Of a DNA stretch of 64,000 nt, positions 6,395 to 61,224 are shown piece by piece (position 1 is the stretch's first letter; each line of letters opens with the position of its first letter). This stretch comes from Escherichia phage vB-Eco-KMB43, in sequence record OR525698.1; one strand, given 5' to 3'. A program made the position numbers and the translations under genes. The notes under the pieces were generated by a model. The model had not been told where the DNA came from. It made no database searches and worked only from the letters and a program-made list of their open reading frames with translations.

Positions 6395-7786
6395 TCAAAT
6401 ATAGTCTACTCGATACCGCGCACGGGTAACACCCACATATAATAACTGCATTGCCAGTTCAAAGTCAACATTGTCTGTACACATGCAAGGAGTATACAGG
6501 AACACGCGGTCTACGCTGATCCCTTGTGACTTATGAATGGTGCAAGCTGGTAATGCTTTTACATTCAAGAACATACGCTTCATCGTCCAGAAGGAATCCC
6601 AATCTGGTTTAAATTTTGGATTCTCTTTCTTCATTTCGCGATATTGTCCGGCGACCGTATTCAGATAGATAGAGAAAATGTTCTTCTGACGTTGTTCTGT
6701 CAGAATGTTGATTTCTACTAAATCTGGTTTATCTGTAGTGATTCCGACTGCATCTAAACCGACTTTCTGATTTAGGATTTCTTTGTCTTCGTCATCATCG
6801 ACGCTTTCCACTTTCAGAGTATATCCTAAAACTGGTTGCGGATCTACACCCGTGCAACGTAATGTAAATTCACGCGGGATGACCTCTTTAACTCGGATCA
6901 TCTCACCATTGTTAAAAATAACATTGGGAATCTTCTTCCCGCGTTCATCTCGCAGATATTCGATCAATGGTTCCTGAGTAACCAGAATTTCATCTACAAT
7001 CACTGGTTCATCGGTGTTATAAACGCGCTTACGCACAATTTCATTGAGTTTTTCGACGCTCTTGTTAGTGTAGGCCAGAATACGGTTTTCTAGAAGGTCT
7101 TCCGGCGTTTTAACGGTTTCGAAATAATGCTTCATAAACTCCGGCAGAGTTGAGCTATGGAATACACCCTCGTTACCGCACTGCTTTTCGAATACCCATT
7201 TACCATTACGGACAGCGGTCGCCACATCAATTATTGGCGCATTAGATCGTTTAATCTCTGTAAGTTCTACATTCTGAAACCTTTCATCGGTGAAGAAAGG
7301 AGAGATCGACGTTGCACCGCCCGGATCAACTGGTCGTAACTGGTACAGATCACCCACGGCAATAATAACAATTCGACCGTTGATACTCTTCATGAGAATA
7401 TCAAATAGTTTCTTATCGACCATACTCGCTTCATCAACAATGATGATCTGAACATCATCTAGCTTAGGAGTATCTTTTTGCTCAAATACTTGAGTATCTT
7501 CATAGTTGGTCGGGTTTAGTCGCAGTAGTGCATGTAAAGTAAATGCTTGACGACCTACCGCTTTACTCAAAACTTTTTTAGCCTGGTGGGTAGGCGTTGC
7601 CAAAACCACACCAGTTACACCACGGCGGACCATTTCCTGAACAATGAATTTCATCATTGCGGTTTTACCAGTACCAGCCGCACCACGGACAGTTGTATGC
7701 TTCTTTTGTTCAATGCGTTTCATTAGAACATCAAAAGCATGTTTTTGCCCGTCTGTTAACATATCGAAAGTTAATACTCTGCTCAT
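6395..7786 (-). CDS. dda: Dda-like SF1 DNA helicase
   Basis: 463 aa; Walker A GAAGTGKT, Walker B IIIVDEASM; T4 order. Confidence 0.85.
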   Translation of the reverse strand: MSRVLTFDMLTDGQKHAFDVLMKRIEQKKHTTVRGAAGTGKTAMMKFIVQEMVRRGVTGVVLATPTHQAKKVLSKAVGRQAFTLHALLRLNPTNYEDTQVFEQKDTPKLDDVQIIIVDEASMVDKKLFDILMKSINGRIVIIAVGDLYQLRPVDPGGATSISPFFTDERFQNVELTEIKRSNAPIIDVATAVRNGKWVFEKQCGNEGVFHSSTLPEFMKHYFETVKTPEDLLENRILAYTNKSVEKLNEIVRKRVYNTDEPVIVDEILVTQEPLIEYLRDERGKKIPNVIFNNGEMIRVKEVIPREFTLRCTGVDPQPVLGYTLKVESVDDDEDKEILNQKVGLDAVGITTDKPDLVEINILTEQRQKNIFSIYLNTVAGQYREMKKENPKFKPDWDSFWTMKRMFLNVKALPACTIHKSQGISVDRVFLYTPCMCTDNVDFELAMQLLYVGVTRARYRVDYI

Positions 7787-11637: not shown

Positions 11638-11841
11638 TTATAGCTCAAATTTCATGAAAGTTCCAACACTTTCATTTTCATTCTCTCCGTTTTCATCTAA
11701 GCCAAATTTATAGACACTACCATCTGGCGATGTGTAAGAGAATACACGAAAACGGCCTACCGGATCAAGTTCTGTAAATTCATATTCTTTTCCGGCTTCA
11801 AAAAGTGCATATGTGCTTTTAAGACATTTCATCGTAATCAT
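11638..11841 (-). CDS. hypothetical protein (67 aa)
   Basis: small ORF; start overlaps upstream stop (ATGA). Confidence 0.35.
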   Translation of the reverse strand: MITMKCLKSTYALFEAGKEYEFTELDPVGRFRVFSYTSPDGSVYKFGLDENGENENESVGTFMKFEL

Positions 11842-11981
11842 TTAAGCGCCACCGACAACAGAATGAGAACTACACCAACATACATTGTGATCTCGGATAA
11901 CTTTTCTGTTTTTGTTTTGTGTCCAGATAATCCGAAAATAACAACACCGATAATAGCGGACAGCAAGCCAACGATAAACAT
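11838..11981 (-). CDS. small membrane protein (47 aa, below ORF-track cutoff)
   Basis: hand-translated MFIVGLLSAIIGVVIFGL..., one TM helix; stop/start overlap with neighbours. Confidence 0.3.
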   Translation of the reverse strand: MFIVGLLSAIIGVVIFGLSGHKTKTEKLSEITMYVGVVLILLSVALK

Positions 11982-11988
11982 GATGATA

Positions 11989-12165
11989 CTAAGCACCGTC
12001 TTTCTCCTTTTTGCGTTTTTCTTTACCCGCTACACTAGGTCCACGATTGGTAATAGATCCGCTCGTTTCACCTGCTGCGATCTTCTCAGGATTGCCGCCA
12101 GCATCGCCAGCGGTCATATCTTCTTTGAGTTTATTTTCTTCAACAAACTGTTTAAATCCAATCAT
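11989..12165 (-). CDS. small hydrophilic protein (58 aa, below ORF-track cutoff)
   Basis: hand-translated MIGFKQFVEENKLKEDM...; ATGA overlap with upstream ORF stop. Confidence 0.3.
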   Translation of the reverse strand: MIGFKQFVEENKLKEDMTAGDAGGNPEKIAAGETSGSITNRGPSVAGKEKRKKEKDGA

Positions 12166-29901: not shown

Positions 29902-30060
29902 TTACTTAATGATACTTACTTTACCAGATCCGTGACAATGAGCGCAACACCCATCACCACGCAATCCTGTTCCGTTACAGTGTTTACACTTCTTCAACGG
30001 TAAAGCCATTATAGCAAATAAAGCAATAATGAACACCGAAACTAAATTCTCAATAATCAT
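29902..30060 (-). CDS. small membrane-anchored zinc-ribbon protein (52 aa, below ORF-track cutoff)
   Basis: hand-translated MIIENLVSVFIIALFAIMALPLKKCKHCNGTGLRGDGCCAHCHGSGK; N-terminal TM helix plus CxxCxGxG repeats. Confidence 0.35.
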   Translation of the reverse strand: MIIENLVSVFIIALFAIMALPLKKCKHCNGTGLRGDGCCAHCHGSGKVSIIK

Positions 30061-53512: not shown

Positions 53513-53929
53513 TTAGAGAGATTCGGTAAAGGTACGAGCGATAACATCACGTTGCTGGTCTGGAGTCAGACTATTGAAGCGCACTGCGTAACCAGAAACG
53601 CGAATTGTAAGCTGCGGGTACTTCTCAGGATGTTCAACAGCGTCCAGCAACATTTCTCGTAACAATACGTTAACATTCAAATGCTGACCACCTTCGACAA
53701 CCGGAGCACCATTATCTACAATCACCGGACGGAAGCTAGTTGTGTGCAGTGCCAGCGAATCGACGTCTTCTGCGGTGATCACATGGTCTTCTGCGAAAGT
53801 TTTACTAACAATTACTTTAGCGCCGATCAGTGCTTTCGGTTCGGATACCAGAATCATAGGCGCGAAGTGTCCACCAATAATAGTACCTTTATGTTCACCT
53901 TTCATGATTTGAATTGCTTTAAATTCCAT
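53513..53929 (-). CDS. grcA: autonomous glycyl radical cofactor, GrcA/YfiD-like
   Basis: C-terminal [11 protein letters not shown]...[39 protein letters not shown] is near-identical to E. coli YfiD. Confidence 0.85.
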
Positions 53930-54618: not shown

Positions 54619-55194
54619 TTATTTTGGATCTGGGAAATTCAATAGAGCATATTCTCCATAAAATTTCCTAGCTGCATTATCATAAGCGATTGCAGCTTCG
54701 ATTTCTGTGTCATATTGTCCAAGAACATGTCTTTGTAGGTTGACCATTATACTAGCTCTCCATTTCTTACGCAAATCCTTCCTGTTACACTTACTAACAC
54801 CCTTATACACACTAGAAAACTTTTTAGACTTCTTCTTTCTATTATGTTGATTTTGCGCGTCGGTTGCCTCCCTAAGATTTGGAGGATTGTTATTAGCAGG
54901 ATTACCGTCAATATGATCAATTAATCTAACTTGCGTCCCATGTTCTAGAAACCAAACAACCCTATGCACGAATAAATGAACTCTAGGAAGACCGTCATCT
55001 CTACTATGCCAAAATCGAAGATGACCATCTTTATTTGTTCTGACTTTAACTAAATCGCCGTGTTTATATCTACTCCCTAATGGTCGTCCTTTGATAGCTT
55101 TACTATCGACTCTATAATATAAGATACCCTCTATATGAGCATATCTAAGTTTTATCTCGTTTTGTAGGGATTCATCCCAATATTTAAAAGCCAT
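54619..55194 (-). CDS. HNH homing endonuclease with AP2-like domain
   Basis: HRVVWFLEHG...IDHIDGNPANNNPPNLREAT HNH motif; YKGVS...GQYDTEIEAAIAYDNAARKFYG AP2-like module. Confidence 0.75.
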   Translation of the reverse strand: MAFKYWDESLQNEIKLRYAHIEGILYYRVDSKAIKGRPLGSRYKHGDLVKVRTNKDGHLRFWHSRDDGLPRVHLFVHRVVWFLEHGTQVRLIDHIDGNPANNNPPNLREATDAQNQHNRKKKSKKFSSVYKGVSKCNRKDLRKKWRASIMVNLQRHVLGQYDTEIEAAIAYDNAARKFYGEYALLNFPDPK

Positions 55195-55239
55195 TTTATA
55201 ATCCTCACAAAGCCAGCGATTAAGCTGGCTTGATTTTAG

Positions 55240-55629
55240 TTATACCGGGTCTGGATATACCTTTTTATCGAGTTCCATATGCGGTCCGTCTTTAAAAGTA
55301 ACCCAATCAACACCGCAGATAACAGGAACACCCAATTCTCGACCAGCTTGTTTAAATGCATCCGCGATCATGCGGTAGTATTTCATGTTCCATGTATCCT
55401 TATCTTTCGGATACGCTACAACGTCAACCGCGAAACCGTGAAGATGACGAGATTTCATAGTCTTAGATTTACCTTCCGCAACATATTTCTTTTGCGTTTC
55501 TAGACTACGTACACCTTCCGTAATACCAAAATCGACCGGAGTCAGTTCTAACGCACGATGAACGACTTTTACCAGGTCAGGATGCACACCAACAAGCCGA
55601 TCTTTGCTTCTTTGAGATAATTTAAACAT
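55240..55629 (-). CDS. endolysin, L-alanyl-D-glutamate peptidase (M15/VanY-like)
   Basis: SRHLHGFAVDV...DGPHMEL zinc-binding H..D..H pattern; resembles phage T5-type endolysin. Confidence 0.7.
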   Translation of the reverse strand: MFKLSQRSKDRLVGVHPDLVKVVHRALELTPVDFGITEGVRSLETQKKYVAEGKSKTMKSRHLHGFAVDVVAYPKDKDTWNMKYYRMIADAFKQAGRELGVPVICGVDWVTFKDGPHMELDKKVYPDPV

Positions 55630-55657
55630 TATTCACCCCCTTTGTGAGTGATAATAT

Positions 55658-55849
55658 TTAGATTCCGGCGATCCTGCATAGAGTTCTTGTATTAGCACCA
55701 ATAAGGATAGCATTAACGACAACCATTCCCCAATCAACCCACGGATTATTATAAATGCTAAATCCGTTTGCTAGGCCAAATACAAGCATTCCGGTACACA
55801 TACTCAGAGCAATAATCAACATCACGGTAAAACCAAATGCAAATCTCAT
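55658..55849 (-). CDS. small membrane protein (63 aa)
   Basis: two TM helices. Confidence 0.35.
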   Translation of the reverse strand: MRFAFGFTVMLIIALSMCTGMLVFGLANGFSIYNNPWVDWGMVVVNAILIGANTRTLCRIAGI

Positions 55850-55850
55850 A

Positions 55851-56117
55851 TTATTTTCCTTTTCTCTGTTTACGTTTATAAAAGTAATACATTACCTCAT
55901 CGCGTCCGGTGATCCAACATGCTAGGGCGGTAAACAGGTTTACAATTCCCAACACACCTACGGATGCGGCGCTGTCAACAGACATAGGAACAGTAAAGGC
56001 CATAGCTAACATAGCAACGCCACAAATGACATTAAGCACCATTATAATAAGACCGAAGAAAACCATTGTCAATCCTCCGACACAAGAAAACCAACAATCA
56101 CGCCAGTGATAAGACAT
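55851..56117 (-). CDS. small membrane protein (88 aa)
   Basis: two or three TM helices, basic C-terminus. Confidence 0.35.
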   Translation of the reverse strand: MSYHWRDCWFSCVGGLTMVFFGLIIMVLNVICGVAMLAMAFTVPMSVDSAASVGVLGIVNLFTALACWITGRDEVMYYFYKRKQRKGK

Positions 56118-56260
56118 GATGCGCCGCTAATCAGACAACCCGCACCAAGTGATTCCCACCAGATCAGAGAAGCGACAATAACACAGAATCCCCACACTAC
56201 CGCAATCACAACATAGGCAAGGGTCGCCCAAAACATATATTTGTTCATAATAAATCCCAT
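56069..56260 (-). CDS. small membrane protein (63 aa)
   Basis: two TM helices. Confidence 0.3.
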   Translation of the reverse strand: MGFIMNKYMFWATLAYVVIAVVWGFCVIVASLIWWESLGAGCLISGASCLITGVIVGFLVSED

Positions 56261-56433
56261 TCACCAAACAAATAAGAAAAAAGCCATATCAACAGAAACG
56301 AGGCAATTGATCCGACAAGCAAAATGATATTAGAGAATCCGCCGTCTATCCAGGCGACAAAACAGAATACACCAGTATAGAAGCATAAACCCATTACAAA
56401 ACATACTATAAGCAACCATAGACAAAACGCCAT
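56245..56433 (-). CDS. small membrane protein (62 aa)
   Basis: two TM helices. Confidence 0.3.
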   Translation of the reverse strand: MAFCLWLLIVCFVMGLCFYTGVFCFVAWIDGGFSNIILLVGSIASFLLIWLFSYLFGEWDLL

Positions 56434-56494
56434 AGAAAGCCCTCCAGTGAGCTAATTTAGTGCGGGTAGTACATTACCCTACCCGTATTGTTAA

Positions 56495-56653
56495 TCATCG
56501 CAGAGCTTCTTCTAGCGCGATCCCAAACCATCCACAAACAACGCCCATACAGACAGCTACAAGAAGATTCATTCTCTCTTTAGGGATCATTGCAATCATA
56601 ACAACAACCATACAGAAAGCCATTACCATTGAAGTTAACATTTGTTCAACCAT
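56495..56653 (-). CDS. small membrane protein (52 aa, below ORF-track cutoff)
   Basis: hand-translated MVEQMLTSMVMAFCMVVVMIAMIPKE... Confidence 0.25.
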   Translation of the reverse strand: MVEQMLTSMVMAFCMVVVMIAMIPKERMNLLVAVCMGVVCGWFGIALEEALR

Positions 56654-56656
56654 TTA

Positions 56657-56995
56657 TCACACCTTTAAAGTCATAGACGCATAAACATTAATGCCAGGCC
56701 AGTTAGGATCGCAATTATACTCAACATCCCACAAATAAAGCGGTTTAGATGTATCAGCCAAGTTTTTAAAATCTTCTACCCACATTTCAAGGCTATATGA
56801 TGGATAAACTAGGCTATCATATCCGCCGTAACGTTGGCCTACTGGTCGGTCAGTAAAAACTACCTCAAGATCCGGTAATTCTTTTTCAAGGATAACCGCC
56901 AGCGCATAAATCAGACGGTCTTCCTTGTTACGCTGCCGAAGGACCGTTGTCAGTTGGTTTTTCTGGTTCACTAGCAAGCACCTCCACATTTTCAC
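56657..56995 (-). CDS. hypothetical protein (112 aa)
   Basis: ORF in accessory array. Confidence 0.35.
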   Translation of the reverse strand: MKMWRCLLVNQKNQLTTVLRQRNKEDRLIYALAVILEKELPDLEVVFTDRPVGQRYGGYDSLVYPSYSLEMWVEDFKNLADTSKPLYLWDVEYNCDPNWPGINVYASMTLKV

Positions 56996-57248
56996 AGAAT
57001 GAAATTTTCACAGACACAATTTTACCATAAGTGAAGAATGAATATACATTATCGAGATATTCAACGTCACCTACAATCACATCAAACTGCGGATCAGCAA
57101 CCACCGCAACATATTCTACCAGTTCATCAAGAGAATGCAACTTAATTTCATCAATTCGGCTGTATTTGGTCGCATCTTTAATTTTAAAACCAAGTTCTTT
57201 CAGCTTGTCAATCAGAATTTCACGCGGAGTTTCAAACAGTTTGCTCAT
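56928..57248 (-). CDS. hypothetical protein (106 aa)
   Basis: ORF; 3' overlap with next ORF. Confidence 0.35.
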   Translation of the reverse strand: MSKLFETPREILIDKLKELGFKIKDATKYSRIDEIKLHSLDELVEYVAVVADPQFDVIVGDVEYLDNVYSFFTYGKIVSVKISFCENVEVLASEPEKPTDNGPSAA

Positions 57249-57269
57249 AATATAATCCTCACATTAAAT

Positions 57270-57470
57270 CTAAAATTTGTTAACGACGAATTGCATAATT
57301 AGACTAATCACAAACATTGCAAACCAAGTATAAATGCAACAGATAAAAGCTACATACAATTCAATCTGGTCAGAGAATACACCGGGTAAAAGCATTAGCA
57401 AAATAACAACAGTAAAGACGCTAGCGATACCCGCAACAAAACCAATATCATTTTTACTAATCGTCATCAA
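57270..57470 (-). CDS. small membrane protein (66 aa)
   Basis: two TM helices. Confidence 0.3.
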   Translation of the reverse strand: MMTISKNDIGFVAGIASVFTVVILLMLLPGVFSDQIELYVAFICCIYTWFAMFVISLIMQFVVNKF

Positions 57471-57664
57471 GTCACCGTTTTGTAAAGAAACACAATAAAA
57501 TCCCAGACAAAAAAGACAGTGAAAATAATCATCGTCAAGACAATAAACACTGTCAGATTTTCATCGTTAGTTAATTCATGACCGTCCATCCATATAATCA
57601 CCAGATAAAACATCGAAATCAAGGAGGCGAATACCAAATTATAAAACTCTTCCTTTAATGACAT
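57467..57664 (-). CDS. small membrane protein (65 aa)
   Basis: two TM helices. Confidence 0.3.
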   Translation of the reverse strand: MSLKEEFYNLVFASLISMFYLVIIWMDGHELTNDENLTVFIVLTMIIFTVFFVWDFIVFLYKTVT

Positions 57665-57665
57665 A

Positions 57666-57848
57666 CTACACCTCGTCGCGGCTTAAGTCAACAGCAATTG
57701 CATACAGCATAATTAATATGCTAGCAGATCCGAGAATCAATGCACCCTCACATTTTGAAACTCGCTCATCAAAATGTAACATTATCCATCCGAGGATGTT
57801 AAAGGCGCAGACCGCGCCTATGTTCGCTAACCAATTAATCTTTTTCAT
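57666..57848 (-). CDS. small membrane protein (60 aa)
   Basis: two TM helices. Confidence 0.3.
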   Translation of the reverse strand: MKKINWLANIGAVCAFNILGWIMLHFDERVSKCEGALILGSASILIMLYAIAVDLSRDEV

Positions 57849-57856
57849 AATATACC

Positions 57857-58183
57857 TTAGAAAGAAACAGTTTTCAAGAAATCCAGATTTTTAGTACCGA
57901 AAACAGAAAAGTAGTGTTCTCCTTTTTCGGTTTTAGAGAAAGCGATTGTCTTCTCTACATGGTGACGGAAGCCAGACAGACGATCACCCAGGTCAAGGCG
58001 GCAAGCGTAAGTAGTGCCGTTTTCGAAAGTAACCTCGATTTGAGTTTTGTCATATTCGCTTTCATAGGCTTTTGCTGCTGCGTCCTGTGCTTTACGCTCG
58101 AAGTCTTCGAAGTGGAATACTTCGTTTGCGTTAGCGAATACAGAAGATTCAGAGAAGATAACTTTAACAGATACTGGTTTCAT
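57857..58183 (-). CDS. hypothetical protein (108 aa)
   Basis: ORF with AGGAGTATCAAA RBS and promoter cassette. Confidence 0.4.
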   Translation of the reverse strand: MKPVSVKVIFSESSVFANANEVFHFEDFERKAQDAAAKAYESEYDKTQIEVTFENGTTYACRLDLGDRLSGFRHHVEKTIAFSKTEKGEHYFSVFGTKNLDFLKTVSF

Positions 58184-58225
58184 TTTGATACTCCTTAGTA
58201 GTTCGTGTTTCGTTTCGATGGGTGT

Positions 58226-58254
58226 ATTATGCTATACACCCTCTCTCGTGTCAA
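58226..58254 (-). promoter_or_regulatory. promoter-hairpin cassette (TTGACA, 17 nt, CATAAT in loop of GGGTGTAT/ATACACCC stem)
   Basis: perfect 8 bp stem 58220-58241. Confidence 0.5.
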
Positions 58255-58262
58255 CAACTTTT

Positions 58263-58451
58263 TTAGTCTTTTTTCATAATTTCTAGAGCTGTTTCTACAG
58301 CACCTTTCCAACCCTCCCACATAATGGACATAGTAAGGAAGTTAAAGCACCCGCAGGAATCAACCTTTTTAGAGATAAACCATTCTACAAACGCTTCGCT
58401 CATACCATGCTCTTTAGCGGATTCGCGTAATTGTTCAATTTGGTCTTCCAT
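58263..58451 (-). CDS. hypothetical protein (62 aa)
   Basis: small ORF. Confidence 0.3.
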   Translation of the reverse strand: MEDQIEQLRESAKEHGMSEAFVEWFISKKVDSCGCFNFLTMSIMWEGWKGAVETALEIMKKD

Positions 58452-58473
58452 AGTATCACCTCAACACTTAACG

Positions 58474-58668
58474 TTATTCAAACTCAAACGGTCTATTCAA
58501 CCTATTGTAAAAGTACATATAACAAGCAAAATTATGCTTTGGCTGTACCGTATCAGATAGACACGCTTTTACAGCCTCGCGGTCCGATGGGTCTACACCC
58601 TCAGCTTTAAGTAATGCTAAAATCTGGTTATAGCGTACTCTTAGTTGTACTAATGGTTTATCCCCCAT
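58474..58668 (-). CDS. hypothetical protein (64 aa)
   Basis: small ORF. Confidence 0.3.
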   Translation of the reverse strand: MGDKPLVQLRVRYNQILALLKAEGVDPSDREAVKACLSDTVQPKHNFACYMYFYNRLNRPFEFE

Positions 58669-58677
58669 ATTACCCCC

Positions 58678-58905
58678 TTATAGTTGATCAGCAATGTATG
58701 CGGTGCATTTGCGGAGTTTAGCCATAGCACCACCTTTCATGTCGCTTGCGCCTACAATGTTCATGATCTCTAAGCGATCAGCCGGATTCAGTCTAGTAGC
58801 CCAGATCTGGTTAGCCAGTTCCATTTTACCCATCTGCGGTTCCATCTCAAACATTTCACGCTCAAAGTCGATAATTTCTTTTGCTGCGTCTTTAAAGTTA
58901 ATCAT
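58678..58905 (-). CDS. hypothetical protein (75 aa)
   Basis: small ORF. Confidence 0.3.
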   Translation of the reverse strand: MINFKDAAKEIIDFEREMFEMEPQMGKMELANQIWATRLNPADRLEIMNIVGASDMKGGAMAKLRKCTAYIADQL

Positions 58906-58971
58906 TTTGGTCCTCCCGTTTCGTTGATGGTTGTATTGTAGGGGAGTTATCCTCCCATGTCAACACTTTTA

Positions 58972-59157
58972 TCAGAAATATGCAATATAGTTTGCCAGTC
59001 CTACAGAGTCATCATTCGGCATTGCTTTTACCGCCAGTTCAAACCCTGCTTCAACTTTCTGTTTAGCGGATTCTTCGTTATAACCCCAGATGACCAGAAT
59101 AGCTACTACGTTTTCTTTGCTTACTGCTTTCAGTGCTTTAGTGATGCGACGTGCCAT
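58972..59157 (-). CDS. hypothetical protein (61 aa)
   Basis: small ORF with promoter cassette upstream. Confidence 0.3.
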   Translation of the reverse strand: MARRITKALKAVSKENVVAILVIWGYNEESAKQKVEAGFELAVKAMPNDDSVGLANYIAYF

Positions 59158-59203
59158 AATTTGATTCTCCGTTTAAGAAAGCGTGTTTCGTTTCGATGGG
59201 TGT

Positions 59204-59232
59204 ATTATGCTATAGGCGTGATCTGGTGTCAA
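59204..59232 (-). promoter_or_regulatory. early promoter (TTGACA, 17 nt, CATAAT)
   Basis: downstream of terminator 59254-59286. Confidence 0.5.
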
Positions 59233-59253
59233 CAACTTTTTTAAAAAAATTTT

Positions 59254-59286
59254 AGGCAATAAAAAAGCCACTCCGAAGAGTGGCTT
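59254..59286 (-). terminator. rho-independent terminator closing the ORF-free stretch 59287-59434
   Basis: GCCACTC-TTCG-GAGTGGC hairpin then TTTTTTATT. Confidence 0.6.
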
Positions 59287-59434
59287 ATAGGGAAGGTAGC
59301 GAATCTTCCTTGTCTCCAACCTGCTAGCGGCCTAGCAAGTGAATGCTTTAGCGTACCGGATCACCCCATACGCTGTAATAAATGCGGCTAGGTGACGTCC
59401 AAATCATTCTAACCGCGCTGTCTTTAGTTCACTA

Positions 59435-59653
59435 TTATTTATATCGCTTTCTCTCGCGACGTTTTTGATCTTCTTCCTTGATAGAGTTAAACGCATCAAA
59501 AAGACACATGACACTGATAATGAACATAACCGTATTTTCTACGATATCCCACGGCTTCGCATCAGTACAGATCCCCCAAACGGTAAGAAATGCAAATAGT
59601 GCAGAAGAGATCACAAGCATGATACTTGCTAAGATATAAAAAGTCATTTTCAT
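59435..59653 (-). CDS. small membrane protein (72 aa)
   Basis: two TM helices, basic C-terminus. Confidence 0.3.
   Translation of the reverse strand: MKMTFYILASIMLVISSALFAFLTVWGICTDAKPWDIVENTVMFIISVMCLFDAFNSIKEEDQKRRERKRYK
59436..59443 (-). promoter_or_regulatory. T4-type late promoter motif TATAAATA facing an ORF-free stretch
   Basis: overlaps stop codon of ORF 59435-59653. Confidence 0.35.
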
Positions 59654-59844
59654 GGTTTTACCTCAATTCTTCGATATTCATCACACATCCACGCAGTAAG
59701 CAAGAATCCCAGCACATAAGCAACAAAATACGTTAATGCTTCTTCTGGTTCGGTGCTATGCGCCATCATCAGACCAGCGAGAAAGGTCTTAACAATTACA
59801 TTTAAAATAATTAGCCACGCAAATAATTTCATCGTTTGCCCCAT
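59650..59844 (-). CDS. small membrane protein (64 aa)
   Basis: two TM helices. Confidence 0.3.
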   Translation of the reverse strand: MGQTMKLFAWLIILNVIVKTFLAGLMMAHSTEPEEALTYFVAYVLGFLLTAWMCDEYRRIEVKP

Positions 59845-60068
59845 TTCGGTCGAGTCTTTTCAAACTTATACATCCCGTAACAATCTCGAATCATCCACGT
59901 AACAAGAGCACCAGTCAACACAGACAATACACAGAAGAAGTAAAACGGTCCGGTTGCATTATCAACATGAGCAAGCCAGGTAAAGAAAACACATGCTAAG
60001 AATGTGAAGAACATCATAAAACACAAGAAAGCAAAATATTTTATGCTACTCATAGCGCCACCATACAA
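59829..60068 (-). CDS. small membrane protein (79 aa)
   Basis: two TM helices. Confidence 0.3.
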   Translation of the reverse strand: MYGGAMSSIKYFAFLCFMMFFTFLACVFFTWLAHVDNATGPFYFFCVLSVLTGALVTWMIRDCYGMYKFEKTRPKWGKR

Positions 60069-60156
60069 CAGATCATAAGAAAACCCAACGCAATAAGAAT
60101 TGCATCAAATTTAGTGAACTCCGGTCCACATATCAACATCATTCGTTCCTGTTCAT

Positions 60157-60399
60157 TCATAGATCACAGAGCCATCTTAAAGCACCACATAAAGCGAGCA
60201 GAATACTAGGTATAAACGAGATCAAAACAAGTTTGCAAAAATCATCTAAGGTAATACCGGAATAGATACCAACTGTAACAACACCGATCATCAGACACAG
60301 AAAGAAAACAAATGCAATCAGAAACAAAGTATTGCTAAACAGTTTAGTGATCATTAGACACCCCACGACGATCAATTTCAAAAACTTTTTTATCATCAA
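60157..60399 (-). CDS. small membrane protein (80 aa)
   Basis: two or three TM helices. Confidence 0.3.
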   Translation of the reverse strand: MMIKKFLKLIVVGCLMITKLFSNTLFLIAFVFFLCLMIGVVTVGIYSGITLDDFCKLVLISFIPSILLALCGALRWLCDL

Positions 60400-60547
60400 C
60401 GAAGCATGTCACAACTGCCTCGTTGACTTCCGCAAATTGTTGTGTTACCCACTTAAGGTCAGAGCGAAACAATGTTCTATTAATAACAAATGTTTTACCT
60501 TTCTTATCCATACCCATAAATTTTGCTTTAACCATATCCAATTCCAT
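60344..60547 (-). CDS. hypothetical protein (67 aa)
   Basis: small ORF. Confidence 0.3.
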   Translation of the reverse strand: MELDMVKAKFMGMDKKGKTFVINRTLFRSDLKWVTQQFAEVNEAVVTCFVDDKKVFEIDRRGVSNDH

Positions 60548-60553
60548 ATTATC

Positions 60554-60715
60554 ACCTTATTTGCTAATCGCTAAACCCAATCCGAAGAGAGCACCCGATG
60601 CTACAGTATACCCGAAAGTTTCAAAGGCAGTAAAGATATCTAAGCCGCCAGCTAACAGAGTTGCAGTAAACAGAGTACCAGCTACGAACATAAAAGTTTT
60701 ACCGATAAATTTCAT
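60554..60715 (-). CDS. small membrane protein (53 aa, below ORF-track cutoff)
   Basis: hand-translated MKFIGKTFMFVAGTLFTATLLAGGLDIF...; AGGAGAATCAAA RBS. Confidence 0.3.
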
Positions 60716-60747
60716 TTTGATTCTCCTTTCGTTTGTTTGTGGGGGGT

Positions 60748-60776
60748 ATCTTACTACCCCCGTTTCATGTTGTCAA
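60748..60776 (-). promoter_or_regulatory. promoter-hairpin cassette (TTGACA; TAAGAT in loop of GGGGGTA/TACCCCC stem)
   Basis: same architecture. Confidence 0.45.
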
Positions 60777-60782
60777 CTGTTT

Positions 60783-61157
60783 TTAAGAAAATTTTACTTC
60801 GTCTACAATGTCTTTCATGACATTGATTTCCATTCCGGTCAGAACACGTTGGAACATGTGCTGCACATACGCTTTCAGGTATTCATTTGATGGCTTGCTA
60901 TCGAAAGTCTTTTTAGTGTAGTAGTCATCACCGAAAGCTACTGTAATTACATTTTCGTCGTCGTTCCAAGCGATATAAGCAAATTTGCCGTTATCCCAGA
61001 AGCGAGCACTAATTGCTACTTTTGTTGAATCGAATCCTACTTCGCTGTGAGATTCAAGAACTACTTGCGTGCCAGTTTCTTTATGAATGTAGTAGCGGGA
61101 TACTAAGTCAAAGTTACGGGTGTAGTGACATTCGAATTTATCTTTAAACATCATCAT
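60783..61157 (-). CDS. hypothetical protein (124 aa)
   Basis: ORF with GGAGAATCAAAAA RBS, promoter and terminator cassette upstream. Confidence 0.4.
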   Translation of the reverse strand: MMMFKDKFECHYTRNFDLVSRYYIHKETGTQVVLESHSEVGFDSTKVAISARFWDNGKFAYIAWNDDENVITVAFGDDYYTKKTFDSKPSNEYLKAYVQHMFQRVLTGMEINVMKDIVDEVKFS

Positions 61158-61195: not shown

Positions 61196-61224
61196 ATTAT
61201 GCTATAGTCGTTTATGGTTGTCAA
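61196..61224 (-). promoter_or_regulatory. early promoter (TTGACA, 17 nt, CATAAT)
   Basis: downstream of terminator 61228-61262. Confidence 0.5.

Follow-up and report, generated by a model that had tools for sequence, protein, structure and literature searches.

Introduction

Small, early ORFans whose functions are unknown take up a large part of the genomes of T4-like phages, and RB49 has 151 "novel ORFs" (ORF, open reading frame) (PMC1524935). The novel ORFs of this phage group lie in early units, and cloning them often proves harmful (Nolan et al., PMC1524935). The hyperplastic regions of T4-like genomes include the interval between gene 57B and the lysozyme gene (PMC2839356), and in RB49 and phi1 the elements called PeSLs serve as attenuators and as strong promoters of early transcription (Arbiol et al. 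2010, PMC2839356). The present work concerns this interval in Escherichia phage vB-Eco-KMB43 (sequence record OR525698.1), of which a stretch of 64,000 nucleotides was analyzed (hereafter, the window). The window covers the first 64 kb of the genome of a Krischvirus, an RB49-like relative of T4, and starts at rIIA, as does the RB49 record. Between gene 57B and the endolysin gene it holds 14 minus-strand ORFs of 36–74 amino acids (aa), packed in three runs (A, B, and C) within about 5 kb.

In T4, the small membrane protein Imm is expressed early. It is an inner-membrane protein of 83 aa and 9.3 kDa that binds the tape-measure protein and thereby stops DNA from entering the cell (bioRxiv 10.64898/2026.03.06.709160). 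The 14 genes described here have been in GenBank since the deposit of the RB49 genome, as hypothetical or putative membrane proteins, and a search of one collection of papers for work on Krischvirus and on T4-like hyperplastic regions gave no description of these runs, of their concentration in one region or of their common topology. The reading that we favor, tentatively, is that they are 14 independent, genus-specific, early inner-membrane proteins, whose most likely roles would be the exclusion of competing phages and the takeover of the host envelope.

Fourteen Small ORFs in Three Runs

The runs belong to a minus-strand gene cluster flanked by the conserved block 3-1-57A-57B (61.2–63.3 kb) on one side and by the endolysin gene (55240–55629), vs.8 and vs.6 on the other. 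Megablast of positions 55200–60800 matched 58 phage records at 90–99% identity, all of them Krischvirus (RB49, phi1, JSE, GEC-3S, W115, and others), the closest being vB_Eco_SAP and TB34 (98.1%). Starts of the ORFs were chosen to agree with the deposited annotations and with the PHROG profiles; in what follows, pN/pS is the pooled pairwise ratio of non-synonymous to synonymous polymorphism.

Run A consists of A1 (55658–55849; 63 aa; RB49p103; phrog_15016; pN/pS 0.19), a two-helix hairpin with a weak second helix; A2 (55851–56066; 71 aa; RB49p104; phrog_15232; pN/pS 0.08), with two helices and the basic tail YKRKQRKGK; A3 (56069–56248; 59 aa; RB49p105; phrog_16151; pN/pS 0.19), with two helices; A4 (56245–56433; 62 aa; RB49p106; phrog_19354), which has two helices, no lysine, arginine or histidine, and the weakest constraint within the run (pN/pS 0.58); and A5 (56495–56653; 52 aa; RB49p107; phrog_16035; pN/pS 0.21), whose two helices are joined by the basic loop PKERMN. 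Run B is made of B1 (57270–57467; 65 aa; RB49p110; phrog_15379), B2 (57467–57664; 65 aa; RB49p111; phrog_21837; pN/pS 0.65) and B3 (57666–57848; 60 aa; RB49p112; phrog_16425; pN/pS 0.44), all with two helices, that of B2 having an acidic loop. Run C starts, in the direction of transcription, with C6 (60557–60715; 52 aa; RB49p124; phrog_16462; pN/pS 0.08), which is Gly/Ala/Thr-rich and weakly hydrophobic, and continues with C5 (60157–60354; 65 aa; RB49p122; phrog_17225; pN/pS 0.75; two helices), C4 (60050–60160; 36 aa; RB49p121; phrog_15282; pN/pS 0.21), which has a single C-terminal hydrophobic helix, C3 (59829–60053; 74 aa; RB49p120; phrog_15290; pN/pS 0.11; two helices and a basic tail), C2 (59650–59832; 60 aa; RB49p119; phrog_15717; pN/pS 0.23; two helices and an acidic loop) and, as last gene of the operon, C1 (59435–59653; 72 aa; RB49p118; phrog_15168; pN/pS 0.11), with a Met-Lys-Met start, two helices and the highly charged tail KEEDQKRRERKRYK.

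This inventory refines the initial annotation, which had listed at least 13 ORFs of 47–88 aa: the ORFs are where it placed them, on the minus strand, but they number 14 and measure 36–74 aa. In particular, the 88-aa ORF at 55851–56117 is better read as the 71-aa A2 starting at 56066, because phrog_15232 aligns to residues 18–88 and all the related records annotate 216 nucleotides (nt). The third array (59435–60715), first listed as packed in tandem, is interrupted by dmd (60344–60547, minus strand), encoding the soluble antitoxin "discriminator of mRNA degradation" (T4 Dmd, tblastn E = 1.7e-14). The overlapping stop and start codons first noticed in the sequence are real: five are ATGA overlaps of 4 nt, one spans a single nucleotide, and the longest, between the start of C5 and the end of dmd, spans 11 nt. 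Beside these seven overlaps the remaining intergenic gaps measure 1–9 nt, several of them 1–3 nt, and such short gaps and overlaps suggest translational coupling in tight polycistronic units.

Predicted Membrane Topology

The proteins were scanned with the Hessa scale in a 19-residue window, a segment being called where the summed free energy is below 1 kcal/mol. At least one hydrophobic segment was found in 13 of the 14, as the first inspection of the sequence had anticipated; of the one to three helices per protein expected then, one or two are predicted, and three in none. The grand average of hydropathy (GRAVY) of the cluster ORFs ranges from 0.3 to 1.8, vs. about –0.3 in the interspersed ORFs, which have no Hessa segment. 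The ORF without a segment below the threshold is C6 (GRAVY 1.11), in which charge mapping finds two weak segments and AlphaFold2 in single-sequence mode builds one continuous helix of 49 residues, which makes it an ambiguous case. C6 is among the 11 of the 14 genes labeled "putative membrane protein" in the W115 record, and the paper on W115 reports the use of TMHMM for transmembrane prediction (PMC9355613).

Two helices are present in 12 of the 14 proteins and one in C4. Charge mapping shows one plan in 12 of the 14, with an N-terminus of net charge 0 to +2, a first helix, a loop of –1 to –4, a second helix and a C-terminal tail, which is strongly basic in A2, C1, and C3. By the positive-inside rule, this plan predicts a hairpin with both termini in the cytoplasm (N-in/C-in) and a very small periplasmic turn; the basic loop of A5 indicates that its topology is probably inverted. 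In agreement with the hairpin, the AlphaFold2 model of C1 in single-sequence mode consists of two helices, 2–29 and 34–71 (predicted local distance difference test score 85). A fold search with this model against viral structures gave no match at E ≤ 0.001, helical hairpins being insufficiently specific. On these predictions, the 14 ORFs encode small membrane proteins.

Clustering of Membrane Genes

The distribution of transmembrane (TM) genes was evaluated on a composite genome, made of the window and positions 64–164 kb of RB49, with strand blocks taken from the annotation; it contains 277 called genes, 116 of which encode 100 aa or fewer. A TM segment is present in 20 of the 277 genes, and 16 of these 20 are among the small ones. 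Thirteen of the 20 fall in a 5-kb stretch of 23 genes (Fisher p = 1e-11; 6e-13 when C6 is counted), and the clustering of TM genes is thus far beyond chance. The other blocks of small hypothetical genes (at about 41–48, 114–124, and 155–160 kb) have zero or one TM ORF each, which argues that hydrophobicity is not a general property of the ORFans of this phage. Krischvirus phages therefore keep nearly all their small membrane proteins in one 5-kb early region, with one predicted topology and unrelated sequences.

Outside the cluster, two further hydrophobic ORFs of 52 aa were noted on the minus strand of the window. The one at 11838–11996, placed between genes 61 and 41 at the site occupied in T4 by sp and dmd, shows two hydrophobic stretches around a basic loop, one of which passes the threshold. 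The one at 29902–30060 has a single helix followed by a CxxC...CxxC motif.

Selection on the Small ORFs

A purine-rich Shine-Dalgarno motif precedes the ATG of every ORF, and the reading frames are mostly intact across eight relatives, the exceptions being A4, B2, and the B1/B2 locus of JSE. When variable sites are pooled, 86, 47, and 149 fall at codon positions 1, 2, and 3, respectively (chi-square p = 6e-13); the low variability of position 2 fits with selection that keeps residues hydrophobic, and the amino-acid changes within helices are mostly swaps among I, V, L, M, and F. The pN/pS is 0.08–0.25 in nine of the 14 ORFs and 0.44–0.75 in B3, A4, B2, and C5, while it is undefined in B1, which is almost invariant. 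The 14 ORFs are real genes under purifying selection.

These data bear on the view that the runs are a nursery of young, weakly functional ORFs, arisen de novo or far diverged, on a coding strand so rich in T that it readily gives hydrophobic ORFs. The plus-strand AT skew is in fact +0.20 at 56–58 kb vs. about –0.05 elsewhere, the 14 are strict ORFans in 15 billion proteins and show no paralogy among themselves, and the constraint on A4, B2, and C5 is relaxed (pN/pS 0.58–0.75), all of which would be expected of recent genes; a T-rich coding strand at 56–58 kb is also what TM-coding sequence produces. The pN/pS of the majority, the intact frames of all but A4 and B2, the presence of Shine-Dalgarno motifs and tight spacing for each of the 14 ORFs in the window and the codon position bias point the other way, and make this origin of the whole set very unlikely.

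Relatedness and Origin

For each of the 14 proteins the only match is a small PHROG of its own, of unknown function, and a Pfam search found no family at its cut-off; together with the homolog searches, this bears out the first impression that they resemble no protein that can be named. A tblastn search with the concatenated 14 against 50,697 phage genomes matched only the 58 Krischvirus records. Among 5.8e9 proteins the only homologs of A1 are those of at least 89% identity, and among 1.84e9 representatives, searched with full HMMER, C1 found only its own cluster. A host or plasmid origin was considered and rejected, since neither a DNA search of 5,426 complete E. coli genomes with the run genes nor a tblastn search of 72,556 plasmids with the 14 proteins gave any match.

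Tandem duplication was likewise considered as the source of the runs. An all-against-all Smith-Waterman comparison with shuffled controls gave two pairs with z > 3 (B2–C1 and A1–C1), of which B2–C1 is unsupported by composition-adjusted BLASTP (E = 2.8), and duplication among the 14 was rejected as undetectable. From these searches, the 14 appear to be ORFans restricted to the genus Krischvirus and mutually without detectable sequence similarity.

Early Promoters and Transcription Units

Five intergenic sigma-70 consensus promoters are found on the minus strand, at 61224, 60776, 59232, 58963, and 58254, and the GEC-3S record annotates promoters at the same places. Those at 61224, 59232, and 58254 share the leader TATAGCATAAT...ATCGAAACGAAACAC...GGAG-ATCAAA-ATG, while those at 60776, 58963, and 58254 carry G/C stem-loops, which at 60776 and 58254 lie over the –10 element. 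These are PeSL early promoter cassettes, and two of them head the units that carry the runs. The first (60742–60776, minus strand; TTGACA-17-TAAGAT with a GGGGG...CCCCC stem-loop over the –10) starts a unit with the gene order C6-dmd-C5-C4-C3-C2-C1, which is closed by an intrinsic terminator at 59286–59265 on the minus strand, after which comes the promoter at 59232. The second (58226–58254, minus strand; TTGACA-17-CATAAT) heads the unit carrying runs B and A, with the order LPD25-B3-B2-B1-p109-p108-A5-A4-A3-A2-A1, which reads on into the endolysin gene.

MotA is apparently conserved only in T4, RB69, and 44RR (Nolan et al., PMC1524935), which indicates that RB49 is probably without it. Early expression of the runs, as deduced from the promoter sequences and from published work on relatives, appears well supported. 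Both the early sigma-70-type promoters and the co-transcription with dmd would fit superinfection exclusion or membrane takeover.

A further sigma-70 match of 11 out of 12 positions (TTGACA-17-TATTAT; 56044–56072, minus strand) is located at the A3/A2 junction, with the –35 directly before the ATG of A2. It is probably fortuitous, because neither the PeSL leader nor the upstream AT-rich tract accompanies it and its conservation is that of coding sequence alone; a promoter active here would yield an mRNA with no genes other than A1 and the endolysin.

The Endolysin Gene and the Question of Lysis

The endolysin gene, which lies outside the runs, encodes an L-Ala-D-Glu peptidase of the M15 type (phrog_465, E = 5.5e-63) and is a non-orthologous replacement of the T4 lysozyme gene e. 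As first noted from the sequence, run A lies directly upstream of it, ending 28 nt before its start, and no terminator lies between the two. This arrangement raises the possibility that run A, together with C1 and C3, provides lysis-timing accessories, i.e., pinholins, antiholins or holin modulators that would tune the T holin or the release of the M15 endolysin. In addition to the vicinity and to the unusual endolysin, such a role would be in keeping with the structure of A2, C1, and C3, which combine two helices with a highly basic C-terminal tail and are the proteins with the charged C-terminus and TM domain typical of holins, the charged tail being missing in most of the others. C1 also has a Met-Lys-Met start, which we take to be like the dual-start motif of lambda S, and A2 and C3 give sub-threshold Pfam matches to the holin families Phage_holin_3_5 and 3_6.

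These matches, however, have E values of 0.08–0.96 and scores of 10–13.5 bits, far under the gathering cut-offs of 27–28. A full T4-type set of lysis genes is present elsewhere, which in RB49 comprises the holin t (p254), the antiholin rI (p086) and the spanins pseT.2 and pseT.3, and runs B and C are 1.6–5 kb away from the endolysin gene. Only early sigma-70 promoters precede the runs: no late promoter was found before any of them, the sole exact TATAAATA of the stretch being at the 3′ end of C1.

The mRNA of the endolysin gene can fold into a hairpin (55621–55664, minus strand) whose stem of about 15 bp pairs the Shine-Dalgarno sequence and AUG with upstream sequence (free energy –12.5 kcal/mol, z –2.5). 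A T4 late-promoter octamer with one mismatch, TCTAAATA, is located in the 5′ arm of this hairpin (55662–55655), and eight relatives carry exactly the same paired sequence between TCTAAATA and the AUG, both included. The arrangement resembles the control of T4 gene e, in which early transcripts are silent and late ones active, here on a non-orthologous endolysin. The structure suggests that transcripts reading through from run A yield no early endolysin; the hairpin thus appears to silence the gene on them and to uncouple it from run A. Run A as a holin is disfavored by the T4-type lysis genes elsewhere, the absence of late promoters, the sub-threshold holin hidden Markov models (HMMs) and the endolysin hairpin. 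A main holin role for the runs is unlikely, with room left for an antiholin-like modulator, and we rate lysis timing as a whole an improbable function of these genes.

A constant pairing of M15 endolysins with an upstream run of membrane genes was also considered, and is unsupported: Klebsiella phage RCIP0009 has no such run beside its homologous endolysin, and in Morganella phage MP1 the nearest membrane genes begin about 1.5 kb away.

Variation Within the Genus

At least 80% of the set is present in 52 of the 58 related genomes, and in most of these the figure is about 98%. Within this frame, A4 is deleted in phage ELT4 and has a 3-nt indel in PHB13; JSE-type phages are without B2 and carry a divergent allele of B1, which exists in two allele classes with 34% identity to each other; and the start codon of B2 is lost in W115, 011D4, and JK32, while the B2 of the KMB43 window is a divergent allele of its own, with 86% DNA identity to the others. 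This pattern of presence/absence and allele replacement fits with independently acting accessory genes.

The JK32 phage also has a partial tandem duplication, in which a copy of the N-terminal part of A4 is joined to a C-terminal fragment of A5 ahead of the intact A4 (7264–7718 of the JK32 sequence examined). It is a snapshot of a rearrangement inside run A.

The same variation bears on two other explanations. If the hairpins were subunits of a single hetero-oligomeric assembly of the inner membrane, such as a channel or a scaffold, this would account for their extreme clustering and ATGA coupling, for their uniform hairpin architecture and for the maintenance of nearly the whole set in most genomes. 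The division of the genes into two or more transcription units, soluble genes lying in between, the individual dispensability of A4 and B2 and the replacement of B1 by an allele of only 34% identity are hard to reconcile with such an assembly, and we hold it to be quite improbable.

Alternatively, the hairpins might form an anti-defense set that neutralizes membrane-anchored abortive-infection effectors of the host or of its prophages, or other envelope-linked defenses. Variable content and allele replacement among near-identical phages are a pattern of arms races, run C is co-transcribed with dmd, annotated as an antitoxin in related records, and the ORFans of hyperplastic regions have been described as frequently adaptive (PMC2839356). 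Most of the 14, however, hardly vary among isolates of widely different host and country and have a low pN/pS, i.e., they are not diversifying; they show no similarity to known anti-defense proteins, and no specific defense target can be proposed. An anti-defense function thus seems doubtful, and independent membrane proteins acting in exclusion and takeover remain our preferred reading.

Neighboring Genes

Between the endolysin gene and vs.8, a homing-endonuclease gene of the HNH/AP2 type (54619–55194, minus strand) is present in the KMB43 window, JSE, JK32, and TB34, and absent in RB49, W115, and GEC-3S. In the phages without it, the final 39 nt of the endolysin gene are unaligned, which suggests a co-conversion tract. 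The vs.6 homolog just downstream of the lysis and accessory region (53513–53929, minus strand) is annotated as an autonomous glycyl-radical cofactor (GrcA-like) and has the C-terminal motif RVSGYAV.

Runs B and C are separated by soluble ORFs (58469–59170) that match unrelated siphoviruses at the DNA level, which indicates gene exchange between unrelated coliphages: the ORF at 58972–59157 (Pfam DUF7421, E = 4e-40) shares 73–79% identity with T1-like phages of about 50 kb, and positions 58469–58908 share 77% identity with phage GaoY1-9D. At the head of the operon carrying runs B and A, a gene on the minus strand (57857–58183) encodes an LPD25 domain ("large polyvalent protein-associated domain 25," E = 3e-14), which elsewhere is found in the polyvalent proteins of mobile elements.

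Possible Functions

In the model that we propose, the runs would represent 14 independent small inner-membrane proteins, housed in the hyperplastic region between 57B and the endolysin gene, whose hairpins would become inserted in the inner membrane of E. coli minutes after infection. There, each hairpin would act separately on a target of the envelope, the most likely roles being to keep out the DNA of competing or superinfecting phages, as T4 Imm does, and to condition membrane functions of the host; none would be the holin of the phage.

Several points weigh against this model. The step from an early small membrane protein to exclusion or takeover is an argument by analogy, with no homolog of known function behind it, and the early timing is itself deduced from the promoters and from what has been published on relatives. 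The predicted periplasmic loops, as delimited by charge-bounded segmentation, measure 1–10 residues, and would thus offer little surface for recognizing parts of an incoming phage. Independent action, moreover, would not require the tight clustering of 14 genes. Finally, one point that speaks for the model, the lack of detectable Imm and Sp homologs in the genome, is weak evidence. Here tblastn of T4 Imm against the composite genome gave a best E of 0.87, dmd and 61.1 being found as controls, that of T4 Sp gave a best E of 0.086, and the Imm family is not among the Pfam matches (E up to 5); the missing homologs carry little weight, because T4 rI was also undetected by tblastn although RB49 has an annotated rI.

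A more specific version of the exclusion role can be envisaged, in which the set is a modular battery and each hairpin, Imm-like, jams the DNA-entry channel, or a needed host factor, of a different coliphage. The hyperplastic region would then serve as a store of cassettes, in which immunities are gained, swapped (the B1 alleles) or lost (A4 and B2), and many of the hairpins may have arisen de novo from T-rich sequence. We consider this version an unlikely one.

Whichever the function, the locus offers a compact, deletable target (three runs, 14 genes) for asking what the inner-membrane miniproteins of phages do, be it in the exclusion of superinfecting phages, in phage–phage competition, in takeover of the membrane or in the tuning of lysis, and how they originate. 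If they are exclusion factors, they would affect the design of phage cocktails, as Krischvirus isolates are being characterized for therapy and biocontrol.

Comparison With Known Systems

T4 Imm appears to be the nearest mechanistic precedent for the hairpins, which are like it in size, in membrane location and in being small helical inner-membrane proteins made early (timing here being read from the promoters). By contrast, Imm is modeled with four helices (bioRxiv 10.64898/2026.03.06.709160), and imm lies in T4 between genes 42 and 43, where the corresponding site of the present genome has a hydrophilic ORF of 75 aa. T4 Sp (spackle) is more distant, as it consists of a signal peptide and a soluble periplasmic domain inhibiting the gp5 lysozyme, while no ORF of the runs has a periplasmic domain.

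Class II holins and pinholins are two-TM-domain holins such as S21-68. The proteins of the runs are similar to them in length (about 60–75 aa) and in the predicted N-in/C-in arrangement of two helices, as are A2, C1, and C3 in their charged tails and run A in its position next to the endolysin gene; they differ in that the runs have early promoters, the phage already has the holin t and no holin HMM scores above its cut-off.

The PeSL-ORFan cassettes of RB49 and phi1 belong to the same group of phages and to the same kind of region, and share with the runs the sigma-70 promoter/stem-loop borders, the insertion, deletion or replacement between close relatives and the lack of homologs outside close relatives. 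The published account differs in that neither the membrane nature of the ORFs nor their concentration in one region is discussed there, the word "membrane" referring to filters (PMC2839356).

Uncharacterized ORFs with predicted TM helices are also found at the same position and on the same strand in other T4-like phages. In T4 the equivalent 57B-to-lysozyme interval contains e.2–e.8, tRNA genes, segB, and ipI, and its predicted membrane ORFs are e.3, e.4, trna.4 and, marginally, e.2; tblastn of e.2–e.4 and trna.4 against the Krischvirus genome found nothing. The same interval has four predicted membrane ORFs in CC31 (p137–139 and p144) and three in Acinetobacter phage Minot, while Morganella MP1 has seven in the stretch examined (of which gp106, gp109–112, and gp114 are named), six of them between the endolysin gene and 57B. 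In all these phages they are fewer (3–7 vs. 14) and most are larger (61–176 aa) than those described here, and Krischvirus is the extreme case of a theme that recurs in T4-like phages.

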